Below, in pieces: positions 4,562 through 62,839 of a DNA stretch of 64,000 nucleotides. Origin of the DNA: Dehalococcoidia bacterium. Lineage in GTDB: Bacteria; Chloroflexota; Dehalococcoidia; UBA2979. The position numbers were made by a program, and so were the translations under genes. Numbering within the stretch: position 1 is the first letter of the stretch; each line of letters starts with the position of its first letter. The stretch is taken from positions 1,840,565 to 1,904,564 of the forward strand of contig CAXXDN010000002.1 in assembly GCA_963667465.2 (NCBI GenBank). Reading direction: 5' to 3'. The notes below the pieces were generated by a model, which saw only the letters and a list, made by a program, of their open reading frames with translations, had not been told where the DNA came from and did no database searches.

Positions 4562-4565
4562 GAAC

Positions 4566-44983: not shown

Positions 44984-45011
44984 GAAGCGCCCCCGGCAAC
45001 GGGGGCGCTTC
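44984..45011 (-). terminator. Hairpin terminator after cassette A
   Basis: GAAGCGCCCCC-N6-GGGGGCGCTTC; equivalent hairpins at 52073-52103, 54789-54819, 62862-62892. Confidence 0.75.
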
Positions 45012-45065
45012 GCAATCGGCGGGGCGCCGGGACGCCCGAGGGCGGTCCGCGGCGAGGGCCGAGGG

Positions 45066-45584
45066 TTAGCTGACGCGGCGCGTGGCGAGGCGCGCGGCGG
45101 CGAGGCCGGCGAGCGCGAGGCTGCCGAGGGCCAGCGCGAGCAGCGAGGAGCTGCCAGCGCTGCCGACGAGGCCGGCGTTGCCGGTGTCAGGCTCTGCCGG
45201 CAGATCGGGCATGGCGCCGTCGTCGGGCATGGCGGCGACGGTCAGGGTGACCTCGGAGGAGTCGCCGGCGGACCACGTTGCGGTCTGCTCGGCGGCGTCG
45301 CCGTTGACCGAGAAGCTGACGGTGGCGCCGTCCTCGGCCGAACAGTCGGCCTCGCGGACCTGGACGATCCACTCGCCAGCGGCGTTGACCGTGGTGCTGG
45401 CGCACTCGGTGCCGTCGATCCAGGCGGCGACGGTGTCGCCCTCGGCGAGGCCGGTGCCGTAGTACTGCGCCACGTCCGGGCCCTGCGCGTGTGCGGTGTG
45501 GAAGCCGAGCGCAAGCGGGCCGAGCAGCAGCGCGAGGAGCGCCGCGGCGAAGCCGAGCCTGGCCGGTCCAATCGTTCGAATCAT
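45066..45584 (-). CDS. Cassette A companion: small secreted PxTG sortase-substrate-like protein
   Basis: Signal ending AHA-Q; EPDTGNAG, hydrophobic helix, RLATRRVS tail; RBS AAGGAG. Confidence 0.85.
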   Translation of the reverse strand: MIRTIGPARLGFAAALLALLLGPLALGFHTAHAQGPDVAQYYGTGLAEGDTVAAWIDGTECASTTVNAAGEWIVQVREADCSAEDGATVSFSVNGDAAEQTATWSAGDSSEVTLTVAAMPDDGAMPDLPAEPDTGNAGLVGSAGSSSLLALALGSLALAGLAAARLATRRVS

Positions 45585-45717
45585 TCGGTTTCTCCTTGCC
45601 GGGCTTGCCGGGCTTGCTGGGGAGTGGAATACGGTTCCCCGGAACCCCGGCCGAAGCCGGGATCCCGGGGTCCGTCGCTACTCCGTTGGAGTTCTCAGAC
45701 CGGAGCGCTTGCGCGCT

Positions 45718-47577
45718 CTAGCCCTCGTCCCCCATGGCGTCCATCTCACACTCGCTGAAGAAGACAGCCGTCATGCCGAAGCCATCAGCCCACGCCGCCT
45801 CGAACGGGCTATTGGCGATCGCCACTGTAACGGTGGTGCTGTACGCGGCCGGCCACGAGCCGTCGCTCGCCTGGACCCAGTAGGTCGCACCGCCGGGGCA
45901 CTCCGCCTCGGCAGCCGCGGCGAGATCTGCGACCGAGCCGCCGCTGAACGAAGCGATCGACGGGGACAGGAAGCTGAGAGCGTCGCCGTCAGGCATGGCC
46001 GGCATGTCCGGCTCCTCCGGCATCGCCTCGCCGACGGTCAGCGTGATGATGTCCCTGATCGCGCCAGTATCGGTACCGGCGATGACGCGGAAGACAACTT
46101 GACCTTCGAGGCCGGCGGCGTAGCTGAACTTCGCCGTGCCGTTCTTGGTCTGCGCACCGTCCATCGTCGCCGCACCCTCGGCGAGGCCGTCGCCGGCGAC
46201 CTTGATCACGTTGATGTCGGTCTCGCCGACGAGGACACCCTCGTCGTCACGCACCGTCACCGTGATCGTGGTGTCGCTCAGCGGGTCGACGTACTCGGGA
46301 GCATCGCTCTCGATGCTGGCCGGCCCACCGGCGACCGTGATCTCGACCGAAGCCGTGAGCTTGGCCAGCGCGAAGTTGAGGGTGTGGATGCCGCGAGTCG
46401 CGGCCTGATCCCCGGCAGTGCCCGGATCCTCGGGCGGAGCCATCACCATGACGATGCACTGGCCATCGTCGTTCGTACCGGACGATCCGAGCGATAGAGC
46501 CGGATCGTCATCATTCACCGGTGCTTCCGTAACCGGCTCGTGCACGTCACAGGCCGGGATGACGACCTTGCCGTCCTTCTCCCGGTTGGTGCCGAAGTCG
46601 GTCGTGACCTTGTTCGACTTCTCGGCGGGACCGACGACGTCATCCTTCGCCGCCCCGGTGGGCTCCACGCCCTTGACGGGGCTGCCCCCGGAGTCGGTGA
46701 CGGTCAGGACGACCGCGACCGTGCCACCCTGCTCAACCGAGCCCTGGTCGGCCTCGGCGGACAGGTTCTTGGCGTCGCCGTAGAACGTCACGTTGACGCT
46801 CGCCGGGTCGAGGGTGGCGTGGGTGATCGTGATCGTCGCGGGGCCCTCGCGGCCACCGCCGATGAGGGTGACCGTGGCCCGACCCTCAGTGACGTCAGCC
46901 GTGGCCGGGTCGTCGACAGTGTTGGCCTGACACACCTGCGAGGGTGCGTCGCCGCCATCGCCGTCGCAGTCGAGCAGACCAAGCGTGGTGATGAAGGTGA
47001 GGGTCTCATCGACAACTTCTGCGGCCGGATCCTGGTCGTTCTTGACCGTGGCCATGATCGTGGTCTGGTCCGAATCGCCGTCGTCGTCAGCGGCCGCGAC
47101 CGTGGTCGAGGTGGGCTGGGCAGTCAGCGAAGCCGGCTGCGGCAGCGTTTCGACCTCGACGGACTGGTAGGTGACGGCCGGGCCGTCCGAAGCCAGAACG
47201 TTGGTGACCTTCAGCAGGATGAATCCATCCGCCGAGTCAGAATCGACGTCGACCACGATGAAGATGTCGCCGTCGACCTTCTCGTTCGGCGTGCTCGCCG
47301 AGCTATCGGTGTCTTCGCCAACGTCACACTTGCCGTTGTCGTTACAGACGATGCTCTGTTCGCCATTGAAGCCGAAGCTGCCGCTCGCCGTACTCAGCGC
47401 ATCGATCTCGACGCGCACGACGCCCGTACCGTCGGACGGGTTGGCGGCGATCTCGACCGTCATGCTCTTGCCCGGCTCCACCGCTTCAGCGGTCGAGGAG
47501 ACGGACAGCAGCACGGCGAGCGCTACCGCGAAGGCGGCGGCGACGGTGAGGCCGTAGGCTCCCAACTTTGTTACGTA
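45718..47577 (-). CDS. Cassette A: start-less (silent) S-layer-like surface protein
   Basis: Open frame from conserved [12 protein letters not shown] signal peptide; acidic, T/V/A/G/D-rich; no canonical in-frame start near the junction. Confidence 0.8.
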   Translation of the reverse strand, partial: YVTKLGAYGLTVAAAFAVALAVLLSVSSTAEAVEPGKSMTVEIAANPSDGTGVVRVEIDALSTASGSFGFNGEQSIVCNDNGKCDVGEDTDSSASTPNEKVDGDIFIVVDVDSDSADGFILLKVTNVLASDGPAVTYQSVEVETLPQPASLTAQPTSTTVAAADDDGDSDQTTIMATVKNDQDPAAEVVDETLTFITTLGLLDCDGDGGDAPSQVCQANTVDDPATADVTEGRATVTLIGGGREGPATITITHATLDPASVNVTFYGDAKNLSAEADQGSVEQGGTVAVVLTVTDSGGSPVKGVEPTGAAKDDVVGPAEKSNKVTTDFGTNREKDGKVVIPACDVHEPVTEAPVNDDDPALSLGSSGTNDDGQCIVMVMAPPEDPGTAGDQAATRGIHTLNFALAKLTASVEITVAGGPASIESDAPEYVDPLSDTTITVTVRDDEGVLVGETDINVIKVAGDGLAEGAATMDGAQTKNGTAKFSYAAGLEGQVVFRVIAGTDTGAIRDIITLTVGEAMPEEPDMPAMPDGDALSFLSPSIASFSGGSVADLAAAAEAECPGGATYWVQASDGSWPAAYSTTVTVAIANSPFEAAWADGFGMTAVFFSECEMDAMGDEG

Positions 47578-47768
47578 TTCAATTGCGACCCCCCTCAACC
47601 CCCGCCCTCTCCCGCGAGGGAAGAGGGGGCCGGATCGGGCTTCGGATCCCCTCCTGCGGCGGGCGGCGGACCCCCTCACCCCCGCCCTCTCCCGCGAGGG
47701 GAGAGGGAGCCGGATCCCCGGTCCGATCCCCTCTCCCCCGGCGCTGCCGGAGGGGGCTATAGTGCGGC

Positions 47769-48809
47769 ATGGCCGAGCGAGCCAGTGCCGATAGAGCCAG
47801 TGTCGATGGAGCCAGTGCCGAACGCCGCCCCAACATCCCGCTGCTGAGCGCCGCCTGCTGCAGCCCCGGCCGCGCTACCCCCGCCGGGCGAGGGCGCGCC
47901 CTCGCCGGACCTGCCGCTCGCCGCGCCAGCCCCCGGCGCCGCGGCGGAGCTGGCGCGGCTGCCGGGCGGCACGTTCCTGATGGGCGCTGACGATGCGGAA
48001 GGCTTCCCGGACGACGGCGAGGGCCCCGTGCGCCGCGTCGCCCTGCGCCCCTTCGCCATCGACGTCGCCGCCGTCACCAATGCGCAGTTCGAGGAGTTCG
48101 TCGCTGCCTCGGGCTACCGCACGGACGCCGAGCGCTACGGCTGGTCGTTCGTCTTCAACCAGTTCCTGCCGGAGGACGCCCCCGCCGACGCGCGCGCTGG
48201 CCTCGCAGCCGTGGTGGCGGCAGGTCTTCGGCGCGGACTGGCGGCGCCCGGAGGGCCCCGGCTCGCGCCTCGCGGGCCGCATGGACCATCCGGTGGTGCA
48301 TGTCTCCTGGCAGGACGCGACGGCCTACTGCGCGTGGGCGGGCGCGCGCCTGCCGAGCGAGGCGGAGTGGGAGTACGCGGCGCGCGGGGGCCTCGAGGGC
48401 CGTCGCTACCCCTGGGGCGACGAGCTGCAGCCCGGCGGCGAGCAGCGCTGCAACATCTGGCAGGGCGAGTTTCCGGAGCGCAACACGGCGGACGACGGCT
48501 ACCCGGGAACCGCGCCCGCGCGCGCCTTCGCGCCGAACGGCTACGGCCTCTACAACACCGCGGGCAACGTCTGGGAGTGGTGCGCGGACTGGTTCAGCCC
48601 GGACTACCACCAGCGCAACGGCGGCGCCGCCGGCGTGGTCGCGAACCCCCTCCGGTCCGCCCGAGGGCGCGGCGCGCGTGATCCGCGGCGGCTCGTACCT
48701 CTGCCACCGTTCGTACTGCAACCGCTATCGTGTAGCCGCGCGCAGCTCGAACACACCCGACAGTTCGGCCGGCAACACCGGCTTCCGCTGCGTACGGGAC
48801 GCAGGGTAG
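47769..48809 (+). CDS. Formylglycine-generating enzyme (FGE/SUMF1), frameshifted in this sequence
   Basis: [50 protein letters not shown] spread over several frames. Confidence 0.85.
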
Positions 48810-48896
48810 TCCGGAGCAGGGTAGTCCGGAGCAGGGTAGCCCGGAGCAGGGCAGCCCGGAGCAGGACAGCCCGGAGCAGGACAGTCCGGAGCAGGG
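48801..48896 (+). repeat. 15-bp tandem repeat, about 6.4 units
   Basis: GCAGG(G/A)(T/C)AG(T/C)CCGGA units. Confidence 0.9.
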
Positions 48897-48898
48897 AG

Positions 48899-49325
48899 AT
48901 GCTGATGAGCAGCGAAGACAGGCTCGCGATCCTCGAGGTGATCGCCCACTACTCGCGGACCTACGACGGCCAGGACGCGGACGGCTACGCGGAGCTGTTC
49001 ACGGAGGACGCTCGCTTCGAGGTCTACGCCGGTCGCGAGCAGCCGCTGGTCCACAAGGAGGGCCGCGAGGCGAGTCCGCGAGTGGGCGCGCGCCCTCCAC
49101 GAGGAGATGCCCGAGGGCTACCAGAGCCGTCACCACCAGACCGGCACGATCTTCGAGGAGCTGGGCCCCGACACCGCCCGCACGACGACCATGCTCCTGG
49201 GCACGCGCCGCTACCCCGGCGACACGTCGCCTCGCGTCAGCGGCACCGGCAGCTACCACGACGAGTGGCGCAAGACCCCGGACGGCTGGCGCTTCGCCAG
49301 TCGCGCCGTGCATATGGACGCCTAG
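48899..49325 (+). CDS. SnoaL/NTF2-like protein, frameshifted
   Basis: [13 protein letters not shown]...LFTEDA, then [14 protein letters not shown] in another frame. Confidence 0.7.
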
Positions 49326-49405
49326 CCCGGCCCCCTTCCGATCCCCTCCTGCGCCGGGCGTCGGACCCCCTCACCCCCGCGGGGGTGGAGGGGGTCGCAA
49401 TTGAA

Positions 49406-51392
49406 TACGTAACAAAGTTGGGAGCCTACGGCCTCACCGTCGCCGCCGCCTTCGCGGTAGCGCTCGCCGTGCTGCTGTCCGTCTCCACGACGCAGACCGC
49501 CGAGGCGGCTTTGGGGGACCAAGGACGGCAACGATCCTCGAGCCCGCGAACACGGCGAACCCCGGTGGACACCAAGGTCTACGTCCACCGCGGTGCCGCG
49601 GACGAGCTACGTGCACCTTCGAGATCACCTCAGGATCGACAGCACGGCGATGCGGCAAGCTTCACGCACGGGACTCGCTGCGACCGACGACGGCCAGAAG
49701 ATCATTTGTAACCCGGCCACGGCCAGACAGTGACAAGGACAGCAACCCTAACTCGATCCAGGTCGAGGTCTCAAGTCGATGCTGATTCCCCGAACGGGAA
49801 CATCATCATCGCCGTCACGACGATCAGCGGCAGCGCGAGCGCGACCACTGCTGACTTCGTGCGAGTCAAGCAGGCTCCGGTGCCGACGACGCTCACCGTC
49901 AAGCCGGTCGCGAAGACGATCGCTGCGGCGGAGGGCACGACCACGAGTCAACATCAAGCTGACCGACGAGGAACGACGCGGGCATTGCCGACAACGGCCG
50001 TGAGCATCATCACGACCGGCGGTAGCCTGTCCGTCATTGGTGACGCCGATGGCGCAGACTGCACGGCAGCGCAGGTTTGCGCCTCGCAGACCAAAGCCAG
50101 CGATAACGACGATGAGAATGGCGACGAGACTGGCACGATTGTTGCCACCCTCGCAGGTATCAACCGCGCCGGACTCGCCACGATCACCGTCATCGCTGGT
50201 GACCTGACGGCCACTGCCGAGGTCGTTCTGTTCGGCCCGGTGGACCGGATCGAGGCGAGCCCCGAGCAGTGTTCGATCGAGATCGGCGGCTCCACGTTCG
50301 TCGTCGTGACCGCCTATGACTGCGGCAACAACCCGGTGTCGGGCGTTGTCGTGGATGTGGCCACCAAGTCGAACGGCTCGCAGGACATCACCGGTCCCGC
50401 CGCCAAGACGGTGCCGGTGAGTGGCGACAACGATGTCGACAAGGATGCCAACGGCAACCACGCGGTCGACAAGGGTGACATCCGCGCCTGTGGCGATGAC
50501 GCCGTAGTGGGCGACGACTCCCGCTACGGAGAATGTCGTCGAGGGTTCGCTCGGCACGGCCAATAGTGGAACCAGTGTCGCTCGGGGCACCAACCTTGAT
50601 GGCCAGTGCGTCATCGAGATCTCGGCTCCCAAGAAGGACGTGAACGACGCCGCCGCCGACGCGGCGCGTGGGACGCACAGCGTCGTCATCAATGCCCTCT
50701 CGGGCACTGCGACTGATGCTCTCGACACCTACACCCGCAACTCTGACGTGGACAAGGTGACCGTCGAGCTTCAGGTCGGTGGCCCACCGTCGAGCGTCAC
50801 GAGCGACGCTTCTGAGTACGTTGACCCGCTGAGCTCGACCAAGATCACCTACACCGTCTGGGACGACGAAGACGTCCGCGTCGGTGAAGTCGATGTGGTC
50901 ATCGACCAGATCGAGGGTGATGGGAAGATCACGGCTGGCGAGGGTACTGGCAGGACCAAGGACGGCCAGGGGTCGTTCACCTTCCGCGCTCCGCTGAACG
51001 AGGGCACCGCGGTGTTCCTCGTTACGGTCAACCCGGGCACGTCTGGCGAAATCCAGCAGCCCATCTCGGTCGTCGTCGGCGAGGCGATGCCGGAGGAGCC
51101 GGACATGCCGGCCATGCCTGACGGCGACGCTCTCAGCTTCCTGTCCCCGTCGATCGCTTCGTTCAGCGGCGGCTCGGTCGCAGATCTCGCCGCGGCTGCC
51201 GAGGCGGAGTGCCCCGGCGGTGCGACCTACTGGGTCCAGGCGAGCGACGGCTCGTGGCCGGCCGCGTACAGCACCACCGTTACAGTGGCGATCGCCAATA
51301 GCCCGTTCGAGGCGGCGTGGGCTGATGGCTTCGGCATGACGGCTGTCTTCTTCAGCGAGTGTGAGATGGACGCCATGGGGGACGAGGGCTAG
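49406..51392 (+). CDS. Cassette B: start-less S-layer-like surface protein, multiple frameshifts in this sequence
   Basis: [12 protein letters not shown] at 49406; C-terminal domain identical to cassette A. Confidence 0.75.
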
Positions 51393-51525
51393 AGCGCGCA
51401 AGCGCTCCGGTCTGAGAACTCCAACGGAGTAGCGACGGACCCCGGGATCCCGGCTTCGGCCGGGGTTCCGGGGAACCGTCTTCCACTCCCCAGCAAGCCC
51501 GGCAAGCCCGGCAAGGAGAAACCGA

Positions 51526-52050
51526 ATGATTCGAACGATTGGACCGGCCAGGCTCGGCTTCGCGGCGGCGCTCCTCGCGCTGCTGCTCGGCCCGCTTGCG
51601 CTCGGCTTCCACACCGCGCACGCGCAGGGCCCGGACACGGCCCAGTACTACGGCACCGGCCTCAGCGAGGGCGACACCGTCGCCGCCTCGATCGACGGCA
51701 CGGAGTGCGGCAGCACCACCGCCAACGCCGCTGGCGAGTGGGTCGTCCAGGTCGGCCCGGGCGACTGTTCGCCGGAGAACGGCGCCACCGTCAGCTTCTC
51801 GCTGAACGGCGACGCCGCGGCGGAGACCGCGACATGGTCCGCAGGCGACCTCTCCGAGGTCACCCTGACCGTCTCGGCCATGCCCGACGACGGCGCCATG
51901 CCCGATCTGCCGGCAGAGCCTGACACCGGCAACGCCGGACTGCTCGGCGCTGGCAGCGCTGGCAGCTCCTCGTTGCTCGCGCTGGCGCTCGGCAGCCTCG
52001 CGCTCGCCGGCCTCGCCGCCGCGCGCGTCGCCACGCGCCGCGTCAGCTAA
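51526..52050 (+). CDS. Cassette B companion PxTG protein
   Basis: Paralog of 45066-45584; EPDTGNAG plus TM plus TRRVS. Confidence 0.85.
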   Translation: MIRTIGPARLGFAAALLALLLGPLALGFHTAHAQGPDTAQYYGTGLSEGDTVAASIDGTECGSTTANAAGEWVVQVGPGDCSPENGATVSFSLNGDAAAETATWSAGDLSEVTLTVSAMPDDGAMPDLPAEPDTGNAGLLGAGSAGSSSLLALALGSLALAGLAAARVATRRVS

Positions 52051-52247
52051 CCCTCGGCCCCGTGCCGATTGCGAAGCGCCCCCGGCAACGGGGGCGCTTC
52101 TTTGTGTCCGCCATCGCCTGCCCTCGCTGGCCGCGCTGGCGCGCGGCGCCCCCTCACCCCCGCCCTCTCCCGCGAGGGGAGAGGGGGCCGGATTGTCCCT
52201 TACCCGCACCGTCTCCGGCGAGGGGAGGGAGCCGGTCCCCTCCGATC

Positions 52248-52659
52248 CCCTCTCCCCCGGCGGGAGAGGGAGCCGCAGGCGGCATCGGGGCTATCGGCTA
52301 CAATGAGAGCCTCAACTCCGGGCTTGCCGATCGGAAGATCGTATGTCTAGGTCTGCTCCAGAGCGGTCTGAATCAGAGGCCGAAGGGCGTCGGCTAAGTC
52401 CAGCAGAGATCCTTGCTCTGCCTCAGAAAGCCCGAGAGATTCTGAGTCGCAAAGCTGAAGGACCGCTTCGTCGAATGCATCGAAAAAACGCTGCCGGTCG
52501 AGGGGACCCTGGGCGGCCAGCCCAACGCTGACAGCCACCAGCAGGAGCAGCGCCTCCGTACTCATAGACCCTCCAGCCGGTCGCGCACTCTAGTCTTTCC
52601 CTGCGTCGCTATGCTACCAGCGTGTCAGCGTACGGCTGCGCCGCCCGCACCCCCGCCCT
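52248..52659. repeat. About 410-bp inverted repeat, left arm
   Basis: Reverse complement of 54251-54662. Confidence 0.85.
52347..52565 (-). CDS. 72-aa hypothetical protein, copy 1
   Basis: RBS GGAGG; identical copy at 54345-54563. Confidence 0.5.
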   Translation of the reverse strand: MSTEALLLLVAVSVGLAAQGPLDRQRFFDAFDEAVLQLCDSESLGLSEAEQGSLLDLADALRPLIQTALEQT

Positions 52660-52783
52660 CTCCCGCGAGGGGAGAGGGAGCCGGATTGTCCCTTACCCGC
52701 ACCGTCTCCGGCGAGGGGAGGGAGCCGGTCCCCCTCCGATCCCCTCTCCCGCGAGGGGAGAGACACCCCAGGGTGCTAAGGCG

Positions 52784-54007
52784 TCAAGCGGCGAGCTGTT
52801 CGCGGTCGTGGCGGTGCGCCCAGGCGGTGGCCTCGTCGTAGGGGCGACGTGCCTTCAGGCAGCCGTGGAGGTAGCCGACGAGGCGGTTGCCGAGAGCGCG
52901 CAGCGCCTGGTGGTGGAGGTCGCCCGCGGCGCGGCGGCGGTGGTAGAAGTCATGGCAGCCGGGGCTCGCCTGCAGCGAGCAGAGCGCCCAGCGGTCCACG
53001 GCGTCGGCGAGCCGGCGGTTGCGCACGAAGCGGGCGCGCACGCTGCGCTTGCGGCCCGATGCTACGGTGAGCGGCGAGGTGCCGGCGTAGTTCCTGCGGG
53101 ACTTCGCCGACTCGTAGCGTTCGGGGTCGTCCCCGAACTCGCCGAGCACCCGGGCGCCGAGCACGACACCGAGACCGGGCAGGGAACGGTAGATTGCGGC
53201 GTCCGGGTGCTGCTCAAAATGGCTCGTGAGCGCGGCCTCGAGCTCCGTAAGCTGACGGTTGATCTCGCTGATCTGCGCGACCGCCGCGCGGGTGCTCGCG
53301 GCGAACGCCCGGCTCACGGCAGGCGGCGCCTCGAGTTGCGGGGAGCGCAGCGCGTCGCGCACCGCGGCGGCGCGCCGCTCGAGGTTGCGCTGACGTCCGC
53401 CGCGGCGCAGCGCCGAGCGGATCTTCGACGTGCTCAGGCGCGCCGCCTCGCGCGGCTCGCTCGCCCGCGCCAGCACGCCCAGGGCGTCGCCGTGCGCGAG
53501 GCTGGGGAAGGCCTGCAGGGCAGCCGGGAAATACTCCCTGAGGGCGTTGCGCAGCCGGTTGGTCTGGCGCACGCGGTCCCAGATCAGCTGCTGGTGGGCG
53601 CGGGCGAGGATGCGCACCGCGGCAGCCTCGTCGCTGTCGCCGGCCAGCGGACGGTGGTTGTGGCGGTCGGTGCGCACGAGGTCGGCGAGCAGCTTCGCGT
53701 CGGCGGCGTCGGACTTGGCGCCGCCCAGGTGGTGACGCTCACGGTAGCGCGCCGCCGAGCGGGGGTTGATCGCGTAGACGCGGTAGCCGGCCGCGAGCAG
53801 GGCCGTGACCCAGGGTCCGCGGTCGGTCTCGATGCCGACCACGACCGCGCCCGGGTCTGAGGCGTGCTCGGCAACCAGTTCGTGCAGCACGGCGACGCCC
53901 GCGACGCCCTCGGGCAGCCGCCTGGCGGCGAGCCGTTCGCCGGCCTCGTTCATGAGCTGGACATCGTGGTGGTCTTCGGACCAGTCGTCACCGACGTAGA
54001 GGGTCAT
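52784..54007 (-). CDS. IS110 DEDD recombinase/transposase
   Basis: YVGDDWS, GIETD, INP, KSDAADA, SLPGLG, YAGTSPLTVASG. Confidence 0.95.
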   Translation of the reverse strand: MTLYVGDDWSEDHHDVQLMNEAGERLAARRLPEGVAGVAVLHELVAEHASDPGAVVVGIETDRGPWVTALLAAGYRVYAINPRSAARYRERHHLGGAKSDAADAKLLADLVRTDRHNHRPLAGDSDEAAAVRILARAHQQLIWDRVRQTNRLRNALREYFPAALQAFPSLAHGDALGVLARASEPREAARLSTSKIRSALRRGGRQRNLERRAAAVRDALRSPQLEAPPAVSRAFAASTRAAVAQISEINRQLTELEAALTSHFEQHPDAAIYRSLPGLGVVLGARVLGEFGDDPERYESAKSRRNYAGTSPLTVASGRKRSVRARFVRNRRLADAVDRWALCSLQASPGCHDFYHRRRAAGDLHHQALRALGNRLVGYLHGCLKARRPYDEATAWAHRHDREQLAA

Positions 54008-54250
54008 CGTGCCTCGCTTTCCTGCGCTTCGTGCTGCTGTTTGCGACCTGCCGGGCTGGTCCTGCGACGGCCTAATGGACCAGTGCTCTCGGGCACGACA
54101 CCCCAGGAGTGCTGTGGACCACCCGGACGCACCAGCCGGGGCACGGTCTCTCCCTGGAGATCGCAGTGTCTCGGGGAGGGGCAGTGCTCACCGGCCGGCC
54201 GGTCCAAGACCAGTCTCCCAGATCGCTCCAGGGTCCGGTCGAACCCCATT
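54008..54250 (-). ncRNA. Putative IS110 bridge RNA
   Basis: Contains segments matching the donor junction (CTGGGGTGTC; CCATTAG) and the target (GCCCCTC; GGGAGAG). Confidence 0.7.
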
Positions 54251-54662: not shown

Positions 54663-54841
54663 AATCGGAAGGGGGTCCGCCCCCCGCCGGAGGCGAGCAT
54701 CCGGCCCCCTCTCCCCTCGCGGGAGAGGGCGGGGGTGAGGGGGCGCCGCGCGCCAGCGCGGCCAGCGAGGGCAGGCGATGGCGGACACAAAGAAGCGCCC
54801 CCGTTGCCGGGGGCGCTTCGCAATCGGCCGGTGGCCGAGGG

Positions 54842-55363
54842 TTAGCTGACGCGGCGCGTGGCGACGCGCGCGGCGGCGAGGCCGGCGAGCGCGAGGCTGC
54901 CGAGGGCCAAAGCCAGCAACGAGGTGCTGCCAGCGCTGCCGGCGCCGACCAGTCCGGCGTTGCCGGTGTCAGGCTCTGCCGGCAGATCGGGCATGGCGCC
55001 GTCGTCGGGCATGGCGGCGACGGTCAGGGTGACCTCGGAGAGGTCGCCGGCGGACCACGTCGCGGTCTCTGCCGCGGCGTCGCCGTTGACCGTGAAGCTG
55101 ACGGTGTCGCCGTTCTCCGGCGAACAGTCGTCCTGGCCGACCTGGATGCTCCACCCGTCGGCGTCGGCGGTGTCGCTGCCGCACTCCGTGCCATCGATCG
55201 AGGCAGTGACGACGTCGCCCTCGCTGAGGTTCTGGCCGTAGAACAAGGCCACGTCGGGGCCCTGCGCGTGTGCGGTGTGGGAACCGAGCGCAAGCGGGCC
55301 GAGCAGCAGCGCGAGGAGCGCCGCCGCGAAGCCGAGCCTGGCCGGTCCAATCGTTCGAATCAT
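54842..55363 (-). CDS. Cassette C companion PxTG protein
   Basis: Paralog; EPDTGNAG plus TM plus TRRVS. Confidence 0.85.
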   Translation of the reverse strand: MIRTIGPARLGFAAALLALLLGPLALGSHTAHAQGPDVALFYGQNLSEGDVVTASIDGTECGSDTADADGWSIQVGQDDCSPENGDTVSFTVNGDAAAETATWSAGDLSEVTLTVAAMPDDGAMPDLPAEPDTGNAGLVGAGSAGSTSLLALALGSLALAGLAAARVATRRVS

Positions 55364-55504
55364 TCGGTTTCTCCTTGCCGGGCTTGCTGGTTGCCGGGCT
55401 TTGCTGGGGAGTGGGAATACGGTTCCCCGGAACCCCGGCCGAGGCCGGGATTCCGGGGTCCGTGTCTACTCCTCTGGAGTCCTCAGGCTGGAGCGCTGTG
55501 CGCC

Positions 55505-57463
55505 CTAGCCTTCGCTCCCCATCGAGCCTTCGCTGTCCATGGCGTCGGCCTCACAGCTGGAGACCCAGACGAAGGTCATACCGTCGAAGCCGTCCGCGAA
55601 CGCCGTGGTGAACCCGATGATCGCGAACGCCGGAGCGGTGCTGCTCCAGAGGTGCCATTCGCCCTCGGCGTCCTGGACGGCGATCTGCGAGCCGCCGGGG
55701 CACTTAGCCGCGGCAGCCGCCGCGAGGTCATCGAGCGAGCCGCCGCTGAAGCTACCCAGGTTGCCCTGGACCGTCAGCGTGGCGTCGCCGTCAGGCATCG
55801 CCGGCTCCTCCGGCTCCTCCGGCATCGCCTCGCCGACGGTCAGCGTGATGATGTCCCTGATCGCGCCAGCACCGCTACCGGCGGTGACGCGGAAGACAAC
55901 CTGACCCTCGAGGCCGGCGATGTAGCTGAAGGTCGACGAGCCGTTAGAGGTCATCGCCCCCATCACCGTCGCCTTACCCTCTTCGAGGCCATCGCCGGCG
56001 ACCTTGACGACGTTGATCGGGGTCTCGCCGACGAGGACACCCTCGTCGTCAAGCACCGTCAGCGTGATCGTCGTGTCGCTCAGCGGGTCGACGTATTCGG
56101 GAGCATCGCTCTCGATGCTGGCCGGCCCACCGGCGACCTGAATCGTGGCCGAGGCCTTGACTGCGCTCGAGCCAGTGCCGATCTGGAAGTTGATCGTGTG
56201 CTCGCCACGAGTCGCGCTCTTGGTCGCCCCGCCCACGTCCTTCTTCGGCACAGACACGTACACGACGCACCGACCGTCGGCGTCGGTCCCTGGCCCGAAC
56301 ACATCATCGCTGGTGCCGTCGGAGGAACCGGTGTTGTCATCACCACACGCCGGGATGCTCTTCTTCGAGTCCGTGGCGTGGATGAAGTCCTTGCTGTACC
56401 CGACGCCAGCAGCGCTAGCGCCGTCGCCCGTAACTTCCGGCGTGTCCCGCTCGGTCTCGATAGGCTCGGGCTTATCGCCGGGGCCAACGACTTCCTTGGT
56501 CGCGCGCGGGGCGATTATCTGGCTCTTGACCGGGTTGCCCGCAGCGTCGGTAACGGTCAGGTCGATCCAGACGTTGCCGCCTTCATGCACCGAGTTCTGC
56601 CGCGGCACGGCTGTCAGGTTCTTGGCCGGACCGGACAGGGTGACGTCAATCGACACCGCGTCGAGGTCGCCGCTGGTGATGGTCACCGTCGCGACGCCAG
56701 CGCGACCCGATCCGTGGAGCGTGACGCGGGCATGGCCCGGAGTCTCGGTGCCGCTGCCGTCGGTTGAGACGTCGAGATTCCCAGTGACTTCCGCGCACAA
56801 CTGGCTATCGACAGTGTCGTCGTTGTCGCAGTCGAACTGGCCGTTCGTGGTCACGAACCCAACACTGACACCGTTCATCCCGATCGGCGTCGCCTGGTCG
56901 TTCAAGACCGTCGCGGTGATGGTTGTGGACTCGGCGGTGGTGCTCCCAGCGCCGGACGCGATCGTGGTCGAAGCGGCCGTGGCCTTCAACGTAGCCGGCA
57001 GCGGATCGACGACCACGGTCAAAACGTCCCTACTGACGCCACCGGTCGTCACAGAGAGGTCCGTCTGCGTGATGCGGATCAGGCCTCCCTTGGAGTCGAC
57101 ATCGATCTTGAGCGCCACCGTCACGCCAGCGTCACTCGTGTTGGTGTCACAGTGACCCGAGCCGCTGCTGGCCGTGGCCGGGTTACAAATGATCTTCTGG
57201 CCGTCGTCGGTCGCCGAGTCGTGCGTGAAGCTGCCGCTCGCCCCCGCGACGGAGGTGATCTCGAACTGCACGTAGCTCGTTGCGGCATTCTGGACGTAGA
57301 CGGTGTCCCCGGGGTTCGCCGTGTTCGCGGGCTCGAGGTCGTTGCCGTCCTTGTCCCCCAAAGCCGCCTCGGCGGTCGTCGTGGAGACGGACAGCAGCAC
57401 CGCGAGCGCTACCGCGAAGGCGGCGGCGACGGTGAGGCCGTAGGCTCCCAACTTTGTTACGTA
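55505..57463 (-). CDS. Cassette C: start-less (silent) S-layer-like surface protein, intact frame
   Basis: [12 protein letters not shown] begins at 57463, preceded by CAA GAT CAG (no start, no RBS); about 650 codons. Confidence 0.8.
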   Translation of the reverse strand, partial: YVTKLGAYGLTVAAAFAVALAVLLSVSTTTAEAALGDKDGNDLEPANTANPGDTVYVQNAATSYVQFEITSVAGASGSFTHDSATDDGQKIICNPATASSGSGHCDTNTSDAGVTVALKIDVDSKGGLIRITQTDLSVTTGGVSRDVLTVVVDPLPATLKATAASTTIASGAGSTTAESTTITATVLNDQATPIGMNGVSVGFVTTNGQFDCDNDDTVDSQLCAEVTGNLDVSTDGSGTETPGHARVTLHGSGRAGVATVTITSGDLDAVSIDVTLSGPAKNLTAVPRQNSVHEGGNVWIDLTVTDAAGNPVKSQIIAPRATKEVVGPGDKPEPIETERDTPEVTGDGASAAGVGYSKDFIHATDSKKSIPACGDDNTGSSDGTSDDVFGPGTDADGRCVVYVSVPKKDVGGATKSATRGEHTINFQIGTGSSAVKASATIQVAGGPASIESDAPEYVDPLSDTTITLTVLDDEGVLVGETPINVVKVAGDGLEEGKATVMGAMTSNGSSTFSYIAGLEGQVVFRVTAGSGAGAIRDIITLTVGEAMPEEPEEPAMPDGDATLTVQGNLGSFSGGSLDDLAAAAAAKCPGGSQIAVQDAEGEWHLWSSTAPAFAIIGFTTAFADGFDGMTFVWVSSCEADAMDSEGSMGSEG

Positions 57464-57686
57464 CTGATCTTGAAGTGGACATAGCGCTCCGCACTCGCTC
57501 CACGGATCCCAGTATTCACCGCGCTTCTTCGCCGCCCTCGCTCGTTCGCGCCGCTCAAATGGGGCCAACCTGGGGCCATCCCCGCCCAGCGCAGGATCAA
57601 CTGACCCCGCAGCCCGGCTGAACGACCCCGCGACGGACGTTTTCGACCATTGCGCACCCCCTTCCGAGGTCGGCCCAACAGTCCGG

Positions 57687-57770
57687 CGAGGCGCGCGCGC
57701 TCCGGCTGCGCCGGAGTCCCCCTCACCCTCGGGGGTGTGGGGGTTCCCCCCACAACACATTGGCTCTCCC
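57687..57770 (+). repeat. About 84-bp hairpin-rich dispersed repeat (MITE/REP-like)
   Basis: Near-identical direct copies at 59574-59657 and 63029-63112. Confidence 0.85.
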
Positions 57771-57787
57771 CCAGGAGAGGGGGCCGG

Positions 57788-57861
57788 ACAGGCGCGCGGT
57801 ACACAGGCGCGCGGTACACAGGCGGGCAGACACAGCCGTGCGGTACACAGGCGGGCGATAC
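57788..57861 (+). repeat. 15-bp tandem repeat, 5 units
   Basis: ACAGGCGCGCGGTAC consensus. Confidence 0.8.
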
Positions 57862-58164
57862 AACGGGACGAACCCCGCGACCGGCCCTGCCGGTCCAGCG
57901 CGGCGGGTCCAGCGCGGCGCCCTGTGGAGGAGGCATGAATGAACGACCCTGAGATCCCGACTGTCAACGCAGCCGCAAGGCCGCTCCCCGCCCTGAACAA
58001 CCACGCCCCGAACAACCCTGCCCCGAACAGCCACGGCTCGCGCAGCCGCGCCTGCGATCCGCCGGCGCAGGGCGGACTTCCGTCGATCCGCGTGGGCACG
58101 GGGATTCGGACTCCTCGCGCCCTCCGCGGTGAGTGGCTCGGGCGGCAGCGGGCGGGCGAGGCTC

Positions 58165-59313
58165 ATGGGTAGGCGCGACTGGGGCTCCGGCGCGCTCGAA
58201 GAGCGTTCGCGCGGTCGCTGGCGAGTCGCCGTCGAACTTCCGCGCGACCCCGCGACCGGAAAACGCCGCCGCCGCCGGTTCACTGTCCGGGGCACCAAGC
58301 GAGACGCGCTGCGGGCGCTCCGCCAGGCCCTGAACGAGCGCGACCATGGAGGCGTGGACCCGCACCGCATCACCACCGGCGAGTGGCTGGAGCACTGGGT
58401 CGAGCAGCGGGCGCGCGACGGTACGCTCGCCCCGGCAACCGTTGAAGCGTACCGCTCGATGGTCCGGGCCCACCTGATCCCGGCAGTAGGCCCGGTGCGC
58501 CTGCAGGAGCTTCGGGCCGCCCATATCCGGATGCTGAAGGACGACCTCTCGCAATCGAGGGCGCCCGCGACCGTCTGGGGCATCCTCCGCCTGCTTCGCC
58601 AGATGCTTCAATCCGCGGTCGCGCAAGAACTGCTCGCCAGAAACCCCGCATTGGCCGTGCCGAACCCGTCACGGGCGCGCGGGCGACACGAGCGCCGTGC
58701 CCTCGCCGAAGCCGAGATCGTCGAGCTGCTGAGCGTCGCCGGGGGGACGGCGTACGACATGGTGATGCGCTTCGCCCTCGCCACGGGCGCGCGCCGGGGA
58801 GAACTGCTCGGCGCCACCTGGGACGCGATCGACCTCGAGCGCCGCGTCTTCCGCGTGCTCCGCGCGCTCCAGGTCGTCAGGAACGAGTTCCTGGTGCTTC
58901 CCCCGAAGACGGCCCGCTCGCGCCGCACGATCGAGCTGTCGCCCCGGACGGTGGCGCGGCTGCGCCGTCATCGCGCCGAGCAGAACGCCGCGCGGCTCCG
59001 GCTGGGCGCGGCGTGGGAGGATCACAACCTCGTCTTCCCCGGTGAAGGCGGCCGCTACTGGGCGCCGCTCGGCTTCTACACGGGCTTCCGGGAGCTGGTA
59101 GCCGCGAGCAAGATCGAACGCCCTCGGGAAGTGACCTTCCACACCTTGCGGCACACCGCCGCGAGCCAGTGGATCCTCGCGGGCGTCGACCTGCTGACAG
59201 TCTCACGCCGGCTCGGCCACACCCAGGCCTCGTTCACGATGGACGTCTACGGCCACATGCTCCCCGGCCAGCAAGATCAGGCCGCCGAAGCGCTCGACCA
59301 CCTGATCGGCTAA
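58165..59313 (+). CDS. Tyrosine recombinase/integrase (candidate invertase)
   Basis: TGARRGE (R), PKT (K), HTLRH, RLGH, DVYGH (Y); N-terminal arm-binding-like and SAM-like regions. Confidence 0.93.
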   Translation: MGRRDWGSGALEERSRGRWRVAVELPRDPATGKRRRRRFTVRGTKRDALRALRQALNERDHGGVDPHRITTGEWLEHWVEQRARDGTLAPATVEAYRSMVRAHLIPAVGPVRLQELRAAHIRMLKDDLSQSRAPATVWGILRLLRQMLQSAVAQELLARNPALAVPNPSRARGRHERRALAEAEIVELLSVAGGTAYDMVMRFALATGARRGELLGATWDAIDLERRVFRVLRALQVVRNEFLVLPPKTARSRRTIELSPRTVARLRRHRAEQNAARLRLGAAWEDHNLVFPGEGGRYWAPLGFYTGFRELVAASKIERPREVTFHTLRHTAASQWILAGVDLLTVSRRLGHTQASFTMDVYGHMLPGQQDQAAEALDHLIG

Positions 59314-59933
59314 CGCAGCGCGGGCGGGGATTCGGAAGGAGATCCGGCCCCCTCTCCCCTCGCGGGAGAGGGCGGGGGTGAGGGGGTCCGACGCCCGCCG
59401 CGCGAGAGGGAACCCGCCGCGCGAGAGGGAACCCGCCGCGCGAGAGGGAATCGGAAGGGGATCCGGCCCCGCCGGCAAAGCGGATCCGGCCCCCTCTCCC
59501 CTCGCGGGAGAGGGCGGGGGTGAGGGGGTCCGGCGCCCGCCGGGCAAAGAGCCCCGATGGCGCACCAGTCCAGCGAGGCGCGCGCGCTCCGGCTGCGCCG
59601 GAGTCCCCCTCACCCTCGGGGGCGTGGGGGCTCCCCCCACAACACACTGGCTCTCCCGCCAAGGGAGAGGGAATCGGAAGGGGTCCGACACCCGCCGCGG
59701 AAGAGATCCGGCCCCCTCTCCCCTCGCGGGAGAGGGCGGGGGTGAGGGGGTCCGGCGCCTGCCAGACCGGCCCCGATCCCCAACAAGGCCCCACTTTGGC
59801 CCAGATCGAGCCAGATCCCTACCCAGGCTTCCGAGGAATCAGCGGCTCCTGGGCCGCATCGAAGCCGCCCGCTCCGAGCGCGAGCGACGGGGCCTCCCCG
59901 GAGCCGGCTGCGGGCCCGGACGCGCGCGCGCCG

Positions 59934-60210
59934 TTAACCGCCTGACCGTCCAGCGCGTTACTCTTCATGTGCCGGGCTTTGCCGTCCGGGGCGCATCGCG
60001 TCCCGCCGGACAGGCAGGCGCGAGCGGAAGGACAGGCTTCCAGCGGACAGGCCGGCGGGACGGCGTTTGCGGCGTCCAGCTCGAGCGGCGGCGCAAGCCC
60101 CCCACATACGGCCCACCCCGCAACCGGAAGCCCCGTACGAGGAGGGCAATCGGGCAGCAGCAACGGCTACGCAACAACGCAACGAGTACCTCCTACGAAA
60201 GAGGGAACAT
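59934..60210 (+). promoter_or_regulatory. Putative expression site: promoter, long leader and RBS for the surface-protein cassette
   Basis: TTAACC-N19-TACTCT (59934-59964, tentative); A-rich leader ending AAAGAGGG-N5-TTG. Confidence 0.55.
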
Positions 60211-62195
60211 TTGAAGTACGTAACAAAGTTGGGAGCCTACGGCCTCACCGTCGCCGCCGCCTTCGCGGTAGCGCTCGCGGTGCTGCTGTCCGTCTCCACT
60301 TCCACGGTCGAGGCGGAGGTGCGGGACACTGCCACAGGCAGCCCCCTGGACACCCCGATCAAGAAGAACAACGGCGACACCGTCTACATCCATAACGGCG
60401 CTGGGGGCTTCGTCCTGTACGAGATCACGGCGATTGGGAACGCGTCCGCGTCGTTCACGCACTCGAGTGCACAGAACGACGGACAGACCCTCTACTGCTC
60501 GCCCGCGACGACTACCGGAACGTGTGACGCCAACACCGCCGACGGCACCACCGTGGCGGTGAAGATCGATAAGGATTCCGGCTCTGGCGGGATCATCGTC
60601 AAGCAGACCGTGCTGGCGACCGGTGTCACCACCGCCGACGAGCTGGCTGTCAGCGTCGCACCGGTGCCGACCAAGCTCACGGCGAGCCCTTCGCCGAAGG
60701 CCATCAGCGCTGGTGAGGGCTCGGATACTGCGGACGAAAGCACGCTCACGTTCCGTCTCACCGACCAGAACGGCAAGGGCATCGGTGGGAAGGCCCTGAC
60801 GGTCATCGCCAGTCATGGGGAACTCGAGGGCCTAGACGACGCCCCCGACGGTTGGACTGACGTTACAGGTGGCATCGAGTTCGACGGCAGCGGCACCCAG
60901 GTCGGCACCGTCACCACCAGCACCGATACTGGGGATGAAGACGTGGATGGTGCTGGCTATGCAGCCGTGAAGTTCACCGCTGGCGGCGTGGCGGACATCG
61001 CGACCATCACGGTGCGGCTGGCAGGCAGCACGCTGACCCAGACCGCCGACATCGTGATGTACGGCGCGGCCAAGACGATCACGGCGGCTGCCGAGCAGAC
61101 GGCCCTCCAGATCGGCGGCAGCACGTTCATCGTCGTGACCGCGACGGACGCAGGCGGCAACGCCGTCGCCGGGCACCCGGTCGACGTCAAGAGCGGCGCG
61201 AGCGGCGTCGTCGGCCCGGAGGCCCGTTCCAACGAGGTGGTAGTGCGCAACGTCGCCGACAAGGATGTCGCCCCCATCGGCGGCCTCGCAGCGGGCGCGG
61301 GTGACCTGCCTGCCTGTGGCGACGCCCCTGACCGAGTGGACGTCGACGGCACTGATGTTAACGAGTCCCTATGGTGGACGGGGTAACGGCACCAACGCCG
61401 CCGGTAAGTGCGTCATCCAGGTGACGACGGCCGGTGCCAACACCGCGTCGACTGCGGACGACACCACGCGCGGCACGCACACCACATCACCATCGCCGGG
61501 CCGGCAGCCGACGGCTCCGCGGACGTGACGGTCGAGATCGAGATCGGCGGTGCGCCGGCCACGATCACGAGCGACGCTCCCGAGCGGATGGGACCCGCTG
61601 AGTGAGATCACGGTGAACCTGACCGTGCTCGACGACGAGGACGTCCGTGTGGGCTCGGTCCACTACTCGGTGGTCAAGGTCAGCGACGACGGCGTGTTTA
61701 CCAGCGCCGTATCCGGACGCACGTCCGACGGCCGTGCGAAGTTCAGCTACCTCGCACCGTCCAGCTCGGGCACTGCTCAGTTCCTCGTTCGGACGTGGAA
61801 CGAGAAGGCGGATGGCACTCGAGGAACCACGCAGACTGCTCGCGAGCAGATCCTGATCGAGGTCGGCGAGGCGATGCCGGAGGAGCCGGACATGCCGGCC
61901 ATGCCTGACGGCGACGCCACGCTGACCGTCCAGGGCAACATTGGTAGCTTCAGCGGCGGCTCGCTCGATGCCTTCGCGGCTGCTGCCGCGGCTGAGTGCC
62001 CCGGCGGCTCGCAGATCGCTGTCCAGGACGCCGATGGCGAATGGCACCTCTGGAGCAGCACCGCTCCGGCGTTCGCGATCATCGGGTTCACCACGGCATT
62101 CGCGGACGGCTTCGACGGTATGACCTTCGTCTGGGTCTCCAGCTGTGAAGCGGACGCCCATGGACAGCGAAGGCTCCATGGGGAGCGAAGGCTAG
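60211..62195 (+). CDS. Cassette D: S-layer-like surface protein at the expression site (frameshifts after 61380 likely sequencing indels)
   Basis: TTG AAG TAC GTA ACA AAG gives [11 protein letters not shown] with RBS; C-terminal domain nearly identical to cassette C. Confidence 0.8.
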
Positions 62196-62319
62196 GGCGC
62201 GCAGCGCTCCAGTCTGAGAACTCCGCAGGAGTAGCGACGGACCCCGGAATCCCGGCCTCGGCCGGGGTTCCGGGGAACCGTATTCCACTCTCCAAACAAG
62301 CCCGGCAAGGAGAAACCGA

Positions 62320-62839
62320 ATGATTCGAACGATTGGACCGGCCAGGCTCGGCTTCGCCGCGGCGCTTCTCGCGCTGCTGCTCGGCCCGCTTGCGCTCGGC
62401 TTCCACACCCGCGCACGCGCAGGGTCCCGACGTGGCCTCGTACTACGGCCAGAACCTCAGCGCTGGCGACATCGTCACCGCCTCGATCGATGGCACGGAG
62501 TGCGGCAGCGACACCGCCACCGCCGAGGGGTGGAGCATCCAGGTCGGCCAGGACGACTGCTCGCCTGAGAACGGCGACACCGTCAGCTTCACGGTCAACG
62601 GCGACGCCGCCGAGCAGACCGCGACGTGGTCCGCAGGCGACCTCTCCGAGGTCACCCTGACCGTCGCCGCCATGCCCGACGACGGCGCCATGCCCGATCT
62701 GCCGGCCGAGCCTGACACCGGCAACGCCGGACTGCTCGGCGCTGGCAGCGCTGGCACCTCGTTGCTCGCGCTGGCCCTCGGCAGCCTCGCGCTCGCCGGC
62801 CTCGCCGTCGCGCGCCTCGCCACGCGCCGCGTCAGCTAA
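62320..62839 (+). CDS. Cassette D companion PxTG protein (one +1 indel near 62409)
   Basis: MIRTIGPARLG start, then AHAQGPD...EPDTGNAG...TRRVS in the next frame. Confidence 0.8.

Follow-up and report, generated by a model that had tools for sequence, protein, structure and literature searches.

A probable inversion-driven, single-expression-site system for a multi-immunoglobulin-domain surface protein and its small partner in an uncultured Dehalococcoidia bacterium

The window analyzed here, a stretch of DNA 64 kb in length, is the final 64 kb of contig C2 of the source genome (G000; 2.97 Mb in two contigs, C1 and C2, with 71% G+C), which belongs to a lineage of uncultured Dehalococcoidia from sponge metagenomes. 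It contains a locus of paralogous two-gene cassettes, each encoding a large protein and a small partner, arranged around a single leader sequence and a tyrosine recombinase gene. The end of C2 falls inside this locus. Its right-hand continuation is C1, as indicated by the order of the same sequences in three relatives (G010, G017, and G011), with the contig break lying within the locus. A first-pass annotation had read the locus as a switch in a Chloroflexota-like host, with one expression site, promoterless S-layer-like cassettes, and a recombinase of its own. The close relatives are metagenome-assembled genomes (MAGs) titled Dehalococcoidia, Chloroflexi, or Tepidiformaceae, which agrees with the host proposed there. 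Our analysis points to a probable inversion-driven, single-expression-site system for a multi-immunoglobulin (Ig)-domain surface protein and its small partner.

Cassettes, shared start, and the single leader

Identity among the cassettes sets in abruptly at TACGTAAC. Alignment of the four starts in the window placed this edge at 47577 (−), 49406 (+), 57463 (−), and 60217 (+) for cassettes A, B, C, and D, exactly where the first-pass annotation had put them. The count of four did not stand. The first 33 bases of the shared site occur in six copies in the 2.97-Mb genome, every one at a cassette start, and the two additional copies lie near the start of C1, at C1:78 (+), the start of cassette E, and at C1:7797 (−), the start of a second copy of D (D-prime). 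The locus, which continues onto C1, holds five distinct cassettes (A–E) assembled as six copies, with D present twice. Across the whole genome, homologues of the large and small proteins were found at these locus positions only.

The shared 5′ site is an 85-base block, identical in all copies save one single-nucleotide polymorphism (SNP), and it encodes the residues YVTK followed by a signal peptide. By alignment, its copies in the window occupy 47493–47577 (A, −), 49406–49490 (B, +), 57379–57463 (C, −), and 60217–60301 (D, +), with orientations A−, B+, C−, D+. The first mismatch between any two of the five units falls either at base 63, the position of the SNP that separates A/B from C/D/E, or at bases 82–88, confirming the abrupt shared start of about 80 bp described earlier. 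Mean pairwise DNA identity of the five units is 0.93 over columns 1–100, 0.30–0.62 over columns 101–1500, and 0.71–0.97 over columns 1801–2800. In outline, identity falls to about 40% for some 1.4 kb before climbing to 77–97% at the 3′ end. Within the 85 bases, identity extends to synonymous sites, beside bodies at about 40% DNA identity, and the same stretch varies between species.

Each unit consists of the site, a large gene of about 620–650 codons, a small gene of 172–174 codons, and, in B and C, a strong hairpin resembling a terminator. In cassette A, the large gene spans 45718–47577 (−; 619 residues from the shared site, by open reading frame and homology) and the small gene 45066–45584 (−). 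The latter encodes 172 residues with a signal peptide, an Ig-like domain, the motif PDTGNAGL, a hydrophobic stretch, and RRVS, as judged from the open reading frame and an alignment of 14 homologues. The large gene of B (49406–51392, +) is split into three frames in the window by insertion errors at 49771, 49946, and 49970 and a misassembly at 49509–49726; its small gene (51526–52050, +; 174 residues, by open reading frame and homologue alignment) is followed by an intrinsic-terminator-like hairpin at 52073–52100 (+) that closes the cassette. Cassette C comprises a large gene at 55505–57463 (−; 652 residues from the site), whose modelled product is a row of beta-sandwich domains, a small gene at 54842–55363 (−; 173 residues, identified as for B), and a closing terminator-like hairpin at 54792–54819 (−). 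The large gene of D, at the expression site (60211–62323, +), appears as two frames in the window through insertions at 61380, 61483–4, 61590, and 62157 and as a single open frame on C1. An insertion at 62408 garbles the N-terminus of the D small gene (62333–62839, +) in the window, and this gene is intact on C1.

Cassette D alone is preceded by the leader (59934–60210, +). It consists of TTAACC (59934–59939), 19 bases, TACTCT (59959–59964), a 5′ untranslated region (UTR) of about 245 bases, and the ribosome-binding site (RBS) AGAGGG (60200–60205). Five bases separate AGAGGG from TTG-AAG (60211–60216, +), which contains the sole start codon with an RBS and is in frame with site D. The leader occurs once in the genome, and in a genome-wide search the 287 bases before site D matched only themselves. 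Short-read evidence was taken from Logan k=31 contigs of four sequencing runs (X1, X3, X5, and X6) from three studies. One X6 contig covers 59730–60246 with 0 differences, so the G at 60216, which sets the frame, is real. Ten of the 13 sequencing runs listed, from four studies and with sponge metagenomes among them, carry the stretch or part of it; no RNA run carrying it was among the 13.

Seven species of the same genus each carry a single copy of the site, with the same leader before it. Aligned across eight species, the leader is conserved from TTAACC-N19-TACTC via a hairpin-prone 5′ region to GAAAGAGGGA..TTTGAGT, directly followed by TACGTAAC, and similarity between the species ends upstream of TTAACC. 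This pattern suggests that the conserved leader combines a promoter, the roughly 245-base 5′ UTR, the RBS, and the start codon.

The leader is absent from all flanks other than that of D and is missing from four of the five cassettes. The flanks of A and B end in ..GCAATTGAA, with the TTG out of frame, and that of C ends in the different ..AAGATCAG, both as first described. The silent flank of A (47578–47680, −) consists of a REP-like hairpin and then GGGGTCGCAATTGAA, without the leader; its TTG is out of frame, and an in-frame TTG lies 7 codons upstream. More generally, the flanks of A, B, E, and D-prime share a REP-like hairpin followed by GGGGTCG[C/A]AATTGAA at the site border, which looks like the TTTGAAG of the leader minus one base, such that TTG is out of frame. 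The C flank is the recombinase upstream region, ending ..TTCAAGATCAG. The earlier statement that D alone has an RBS and an in-frame start is correct in its positive part (AGAGGG, 5 bases, TTG-AAG). Its corollary, that the other cassettes have no start, goes too far, because in-frame TTG or GTG codons exist in the flanks of A, B, and D-prime and a TTG exists at codon 5; that they have no leader is the exact description.

Recombinase module and its distribution among relatives

Between the divergent sites C and D lie 2753 bases with one gene, an intact tyrosine recombinase, in line with the segment of about 2.75 kb and the complete recombinase noted at first pass. The open reading frame opens with GTG at 58129, and ATG 58165 matches the start of the orthologues, giving a gene at 58165–59313 (+). 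The proposed invertible module (57464–60216) would comprise, between the inverted sites C and D, the recombinase upstream region, the recombinase, a cluster of REP-like palindromic elements (59316–59763), and the leader; the same order is found in G001. The recombinase is of the integrase type, with matches to Pfam Phage_integrase (6.6e-20), SAM_3, and Int_M, that is, SAM-like and central integrase domains. It fell below the cutoffs for Xer membership (XerD, 54.9 bits versus 329.6; XerC, 51.3 versus 335), and its nearest solved relatives are integrases of phages and conjugative transposons. No recombinase paralogue was found in the genome by tblastn at 1e-5, and the genome has four genes with a Phage_integrase domain, the locus recombinase included. 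The dN/dS ratio was 0.25 between G000 and G001 and 0.35 between G000 and G013, and the ARRGE, HTLRH, LGH, and VYGH motifs are kept, which indicates that the recombinase is under purifying selection. No other mobile-element genes were found in the 2.75-kb module. Prophage attachment sites were considered as an explanation of the shared sites and rejected, as the module is without other phage genes.

In a survey of 99 genomes of the family, with the large protein counted at E ≤ 1e-20, it was found in 19, including 15 of the 18 other members of the genus and three of the five members of one other genus. Clustered multiple cassettes occur in three genomes only: G000, G001 (three cassettes), and G013 (four cassettes). 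G101 has two large-protein copies, far apart. All three multi-cassette genomes have the recombinase between divergent cassettes (identity 100% in G000, 86–88% in G001, and 62% in G013). A recombinase homologue was found at none of seven single-cassette loci (±10 kb, tblastn E ≤ 1e-8), and in other single-copy genomes the recombinase matches lie on different contigs or at least tens of kb away. A GTDB search for related loci returned 20 loci, among which several cassettes together with a recombinase were found in G001 and G013 only. By MnmA identity to G000, G001 is a sister (94%) and G013 belongs to a distant subclade (76%) whose other members have a single cassette. The association between recombinase and multiple cassettes is therefore found in two separated lineages.

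The two relatives differ in layout. The G001 module has the order seen in G000, with a C-type flank, the recombinase, and the leader. Its third cassette keeps TTTGAAG at the site border with no RBS, and its leader-linked cassette is accompanied by a 95%-identical silent copy in direct orientation. All four cassettes of G013 carry the entire 5′ UTR from the hairpin onward, the TTAACC-N19-TACTC boxes being kept by c1 alone, and they have 400–800 bases in common at about 90% identity. The edge of homology lies at the start codon in G000 and G001 and at the transcription start in G013. The G013-type hairpin, CCCCACC-N7-GGTGGGG, gave one match with two mismatches in the window, no better than chance.

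Rearrangement, proposed inversion, and rival explanations

Signs of REARRANGEMENT came from comparison with single-cassette relatives. In G010, G017, and G011, an alcohol-dehydrogenase-like gene comes first, then SnoaL and FGE genes encoded on the other strand, then the cassette and the leader, and finally a homologue of the sequence from C1:7918 onward. The FGE-SnoaL segment of G000, which the inverted sites A and B enclose, has the opposite orientation to that in those three genomes. Further signs came from the assembly itself. Window positions 60211–64000, which hold D, its small gene, REP elements, and the start of an IS110 copy, equal C1:7802–4027 reversed, with 0 substitutions in 3790 bases; the 13 gaps between D and D-prime all consist of extra bases in the window copy. 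C1:1–77, the flank of E, is the reverse of C1:7798–7875, the flank of D-prime, with 0 substitutions and three one-base indels. D follows the leader on C2 and a silent flank on C1, the latter flank being joined to E as well. These junctions are best read as the two orientations, both occurring among the sequenced cells, of a 7.7-kb segment (D, IS110, and E) between inverted sites, which would be the simplest account. It would leave as many flanks as bodies, five of each, and would explain both the stop of the two contigs at this point and the poor polishing of minority paths.

Consensus errors cluster in the locus. Short-read contigs lacked single bases at 47589, 47878, 48179, 48652, 49074, 49771, 49946, 49970, 61380, and 61590 and two bases at 61483, and the same comparison gave 12 further indels. 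The stretch at 49509–49726 is replaced by a shorter one in the short-read contigs and is misassembled in the window. The error clusters span 47589–49970 and 61380–63985, and the same error type is found in the first 250 bases of C1, with E affected too. The cassettes are most likely intact, with the broken frames in B, in D, and in the FGE gene caused by assembly insertion errors clustered in the locus. Loci of this kind interrupt long-read MAG assemblies and accumulate consensus errors resembling pseudogenes.

Contig depth in Logan is not copy number, a caveat that applies to all depth figures given here. In run X1, the depths were 40.2 for A, 42.4 for B, 47.7 for C, 45.3 for D, 33.4 for the recombinase, and 38.2 for the outside flank. 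Because these depths are alike, all bodies appear to be present in one population at about one copy. D was at about one copy in X1, and X6 was similar. A collapse of strain variants in the assembly was rejected as the origin of the four copies, their bodies having about equal contig depth in X1. Logan joints with sides of 20–44 bases at REP-like elements were treated as repeat joins and not as inversions.

We lean toward recombinase-driven inversion at the 5′ site as the process that moves the single leader between cassettes. In this model, five promoterless two-gene cassettes, each opening with the same 85-base start and ending in a terminator, would share a 2.75-kb module in which the integrase-type recombinase gene is followed by the sole promoter-like region, the 5′ UTR, the RBS, and TTG, with inverted sites as its borders. 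Strand exchange between inverted copies, near a TACGTA palindrome at the 5′ edge of the site or slightly within it, would flip the intervening DNA and bring another cassette body behind the leader. From the assembled state (A−, B+, C−, leader-D+, E−), A, C, and E could each be reached in one inversion, and B only after another inversion had taken place; exchange between two directly oriented sites would delete the module. A crossover near TACGTA would preserve perfect identity downstream and allow start codons to decay upstream, giving the sharp edge. At the TACGTA position, single-copy relatives have the 10-base palindrome GTTACGTAAC, and this ancestral palindrome may be the crossover core.

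Several observations weigh against this model. Four loci with recombinase homologues (57–66% identical) in G101 and G098 are without cassette genes; one of these homologues is 1.2 kb from a tRNA-Glu gene and another lies between 1.8-kb inverted repeats. Because homologues sit beside a tRNA gene and in a mobile element, the recombinase clade is not dedicated to cassette switching. Because the homology edge of G000 and G001 differs from that of G013, no common core site is evident. A scan of 47400–60400, leader included, with the sigma-70 consensus gave 0 promoter-like sites, and the putative promoter is therefore placed in the leader by conservation only. Seven codons upstream, the flanks of A, B, and D-prime carry a TTG or GTG that is in frame, in the REP-like hairpin and with a G-rich stretch upstream of it, and codon 5 is an in-frame TTG in all copies. 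Such alternative starts are chosen by gene callers (entries of 648 and 626 residues), and some leader-independent expression of cassettes is possible.

The assembly also contributes points of this kind. Its quality in the locus is poor, with clustered insertions and misassembly, and few reads may underlie its joins. The D contig of run X3 had about twice the depth of the other bodies (14.6 versus 5–10.6), which fits a true duplication of D, and a true inverted duplication is possible. The junction of leader and E that the two-orientation account predicts is absent from the assembly, and scans of JGI metagenome contigs gave no match to the leader-site junction or to a degenerate site. Logan contigs stop about 30 bases into each site copy; no read or contig spans a site, and no alternative junction was seen directly, so inversion and its catalysis by the recombinase rather than by general recombination are what we infer, as are the silence of unlinked cassettes and a surface coat built from the two proteins. 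The core of the switch outlined in the first-pass annotation is supported by the unique conserved leader, by a recombinase at three of three multi-cassette loci and zero of seven single-cassette loci, and by D on two flanks; its inversion step stays a proposal.

Switching could be real but proceed via general (RecA-type) recombination at the 85-base 5′ or 1.1-kb 3′ homology, with the recombinase a leftover of a mobile element. Long inverted homologies exist at the locus (the 3′ ends of A and B match over 906 bases at 95%, and B and C over 484 bases at 93%), the G013 cassettes share their longer stretches, the recombinase clade includes ordinary integrases, and G000 and G013 have no core site in common. 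We nevertheless regard this route as unlikely, since the recombinase lies in the promoter module of all three multi-cassette genomes, from two subclades, and at none of the seven single-cassette loci, and is under purifying selection; no other mobile-element genes share the 2.75-kb module; and the 5′ homology in G000 and G001 is just 85 bases and sharp-edged, short for efficient general recombination. A static family of paralogues with their own signals appears improbable. Such a family would owe its identical 5′ ends to signal-peptide constraint and gene conversion, and the contig break and duplicated D would be an assembly artefact or a true inverted duplication. The conserved leader of about 290 bases found in single-copy orthologues is missing from four of the five cassettes, however, and the start codon has decayed in the silent flanks. 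The 85 bases are identical even synonymously beside bodies at about 40% identity, in a stretch variable between species; the recombinase co-occurs with multi-cassette loci; and the flanks of E and D-prime are one sequence. What this reading does accommodate are the in-frame alternative starts in silent flanks and at codon 5, the roughly doubled depth of the X3 D contig, the low assembly quality in the locus, and the fact that no junction variants were observed.

Nonreciprocal gene conversion, as in pilE/pilS, would copy silent cassettes into the expression site and make D a fresh copy of D-prime. The identity of D and D-prime over 3.79 kb fits this account, as do the 95%-identical silent copy in direct orientation in G001 and the X3 depth. 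Yet the identical tract reaches the REP elements and the IS110 copy, far past the cassette; the identity of the E and D-prime flanks is left unexplained; neither the recombinase nor the strict alternation of site orientations is given a part to play; and D was at about one copy in X1 and X6. We give gene conversion little credence. Returning to recombinase-driven inversion, a more far-reaching form of it is conceivable and is offered tentatively: a phage-type integrase may have been domesticated as a self-contained invertible module of promoter and recombinase in two separate Dehalococcoidia lineages, with differing crossover positions, swapping a coat protein and its sortase-anchored holder as matched pairs, with two orientations of the 7.7-kb segment already in the population.

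Gene products, neighboring genes, and comparison with known systems

The large protein can safely be called a surface protein. The S-layer label given at first pass found no match, as no SLH domain and no Pfam or NCBIfam S-layer family was detected, and weak, below-cutoff matches to Big_1 and Glyco_hydro2_C5 were the only ones. The 113 other homologues are unnamed or hypothetical and come mostly from metagenome assemblies. An AlphaFold model built from 58 sequences (pLDDT 86, pTM 0.67) predicts a chain of Ig-like beta-sandwich domains followed by a small alpha/beta C-terminal domain. Foldseek returned generic Ig-array proteins (complement C3, alpha-2-macroglobulin, and PrgB), among which the S-layer proteins SbsC and SbsB ranked 33 and 49 (TM about 0.15); all of these matches had TM scores of about 0.15–0.2.

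In the small protein, a signal peptide precedes a single Ig-like domain, which contains two conserved cysteines, and a variable Pro/Asp-rich linker. At its C-terminus, G-N-A-G-L is invariant in 14 of 14 homologues, mostly preceded by P-[DE]-T, and is followed by about 25 hydrophobic residues and T-R-R-V-S. The conserved motif x-P-[DE]-T-G-N-A-G-L departs from the canonical LPXTG, and no LPXTG or NCBIfam anchor model matched the small protein. The only sortase gene of the genome (40901–41914, +; single PF04203 match, Pfam Sortase 3.8e-15) is 3 kb upstream of the locus. The small protein is probably sortase-anchored, judging from this gene and from the C-terminal motif, hydrophobic stretch, and RRVS; the earlier designation as a sortase substrate gains support from these features and finds no counterpart in the LPXTG models.

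By its translations, the small protein comes in two types that co-vary with those of the large protein's C-terminal domain, A/B versus C/D. A complex prediction with large-protein residues 556–648 and small-protein residues 35–120 scored 0.49, against 0.01 for the best of three controls; runs agreed in at least 94% of contacts, and the partner pLDDT was at least 80. In the benchmark of this score, 58 of 80 solved complexes and two of 110 mismatched pairs reached the mark, with seven of the 80 complexes and both passing mismatches at 0.60 or under. A pass at or below 0.60 is more often wrong than right unless the pairing is likely beforehand, and we use the result, weak support by this measure, as a lead only.

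Other features surround the cassettes. FGE-sulfatase-like and SnoaL-like genes (47845–49330, +), with frames broken by assembly insertions, occupy the interval between the divergent sites A and B. In G010 (L019), a sulfatase gene at 4293–5978 stands beside the FGE (sulfatase-maturing) and SnoaL genes near the cassette; none was seen at the matching place in G000 (window 47845–49330). An IS110-family insertion sequence (52729–54280, −; Pfam DEDD_Tnp_IS110 6.9e-38), with about 11 further copies in the genome, lies between the convergent cassettes B and C. It is enclosed by a 423-base perfect inverted repeat (52237–52659 and 54251–54673), 3′ of B and C, which extends their 93% inverted 3′ homology. 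The start of a second IS110 copy (63225–64000, +) runs into the contig end. Both copies contain a 65-bit match to the Rfam family Ms_AS-4, an actinobacterial small-RNA family, at 53102–53183 and 63609–63690, probably a feature of the transposase gene region and not a separate RNA gene; the Rfam scan returned nothing else. REP-like palindromes (CTCTCCC, 3–8 bases, GGGAGAG) number 71 in the genome and are strongly enriched at the locus, 16 of them falling in window positions 44000–64000. They lie near almost every cassette and fill 59316–59763.

On C1, the right flank of the locus (9405–12810) encodes a terminase large subunit (Terminase_6C) and an SPP1-type portal, with 85–91% DNA identity in G009, G010, G011, and G017. 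This cluster is a conserved phage-derived element, not a recent prophage, and is possibly gene-transfer-agent-like. The recombinase homologue of G101 mentioned above (L030; 57% identical) lies between inverted repeats of 1.8 kb, 91% identical, at 4118–5944 and 11685–13514. From their translation, these repeats appear to encode a mobile-element-type single-stranded-DNA-binding/metalloprotease-like protein, and the arrangement may be another invertible or duplicated structure, unrelated to the cassettes.

Switching of surface coats at a single site has been found mainly in mycoplasmas, Campylobacter, and a few Firmicutes and is usually viewed as immune evasion by pathogens. In the sap locus of Campylobacter fetus, one promoter lies on an invertible segment between oppositely oriented homologues with conserved 5′ ends, and larger inversions reach distant cassettes. 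The invertible element is not known to contain a dedicated recombinase, the conserved 5′ region measures several hundred bases, and switching is largely RecA-dependent. The present locus resembles sap in its single promoter on a putative invertible segment and in its oppositely oriented homologues with conserved 5′ ends and differs in having a recombinase and an 85-base repeat. Neither the lack of a recombinase nor the hundreds of bases of 5′ homology that mark a RecA-dependent, sap-type locus was found in G000. Lactobacillus slpA/slpB switches by general homologous recombination. The R64 shufflon (Rci/sfx) undergoes multiple inversions at alternating sites, conserved on one side only, through one tyrosine recombinase, and swaps the C-terminal ends of pilV. 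Several alternating sites, one tyrosine recombinase, and one-sided site conservation are shared with the shufflon; here, whole two-gene operons would be swapped behind a fixed promoter and start.

In Campylobacter, DNA inversions govern the expression of S-layer proteins (PMC3919590). For the vpma and vsp loci of Mycoplasma agalactiae and Mycoplasma bovis, PMC2268961 describes clustered surface-protein genes, one unique promoter, a tyrosine recombinase at the locus (Xer1/Mbr), and inversions that link a silent open reading frame to the promoter, with recombination sites just upstream of the start codon (−1 to −72). The present locus is like these in its cluster of paralogues with conserved 5′ regions and signal peptides, its one putative promoter, and its locus tyrosine recombinase. 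The closest match is the layout of G013, in which the silent copies keep the 5′ UTR and are without the promoter only. The differences are that the host here is a high-G+C Dehalococcoidia bacterium, not a mollicute; that its products, instead of being lipoproteins, are secreted proteins built of Ig domains and accompanied by a separate, probably anchored partner; that the recombinase is integrase-type with an N-terminal DNA-binding region, falls below the Xer cutoffs, and lies inside the proposed invertible module; and that the start codon, rather than the UTR, marks the homology edge in G000 and G001.

According to the same paper (PMC2268961), the vsa expression site of Mycoplasma pulmonis (recombinase HvsR) gives a promoter, an RBS, and the first 714 coding bases to incomplete silent genes by inversion within the coding sequence. 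Here, too, an expression site would supply the promoter, RBS, and coding start to incomplete silent genes. The donated coding part would be TTG and one codon, each cassette bringing a signal peptide of its own. In contrast to vpma, vsp, and vsa, switching here is proposed from sequence and assembly. Full-text literature searches turned up no such system for Chloroflexota or Dehalococcoidia, and a survey of gene-altering inversions leaves Chloroflexi unmentioned in its main text, the part covered here (PMC9881135).

If real, the system would be an example of an integrase-type enzyme recruited for surface switching, and it would give a concrete handle on surface variation in sponge symbionts, perhaps against phages or host phagocytosis. 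Relatives with and without it form a natural comparison. If the domesticated-integrase reading is also true, the locus would be a case of programmed variation of the cell surface in an animal symbiont that is not among the classical pathogens.

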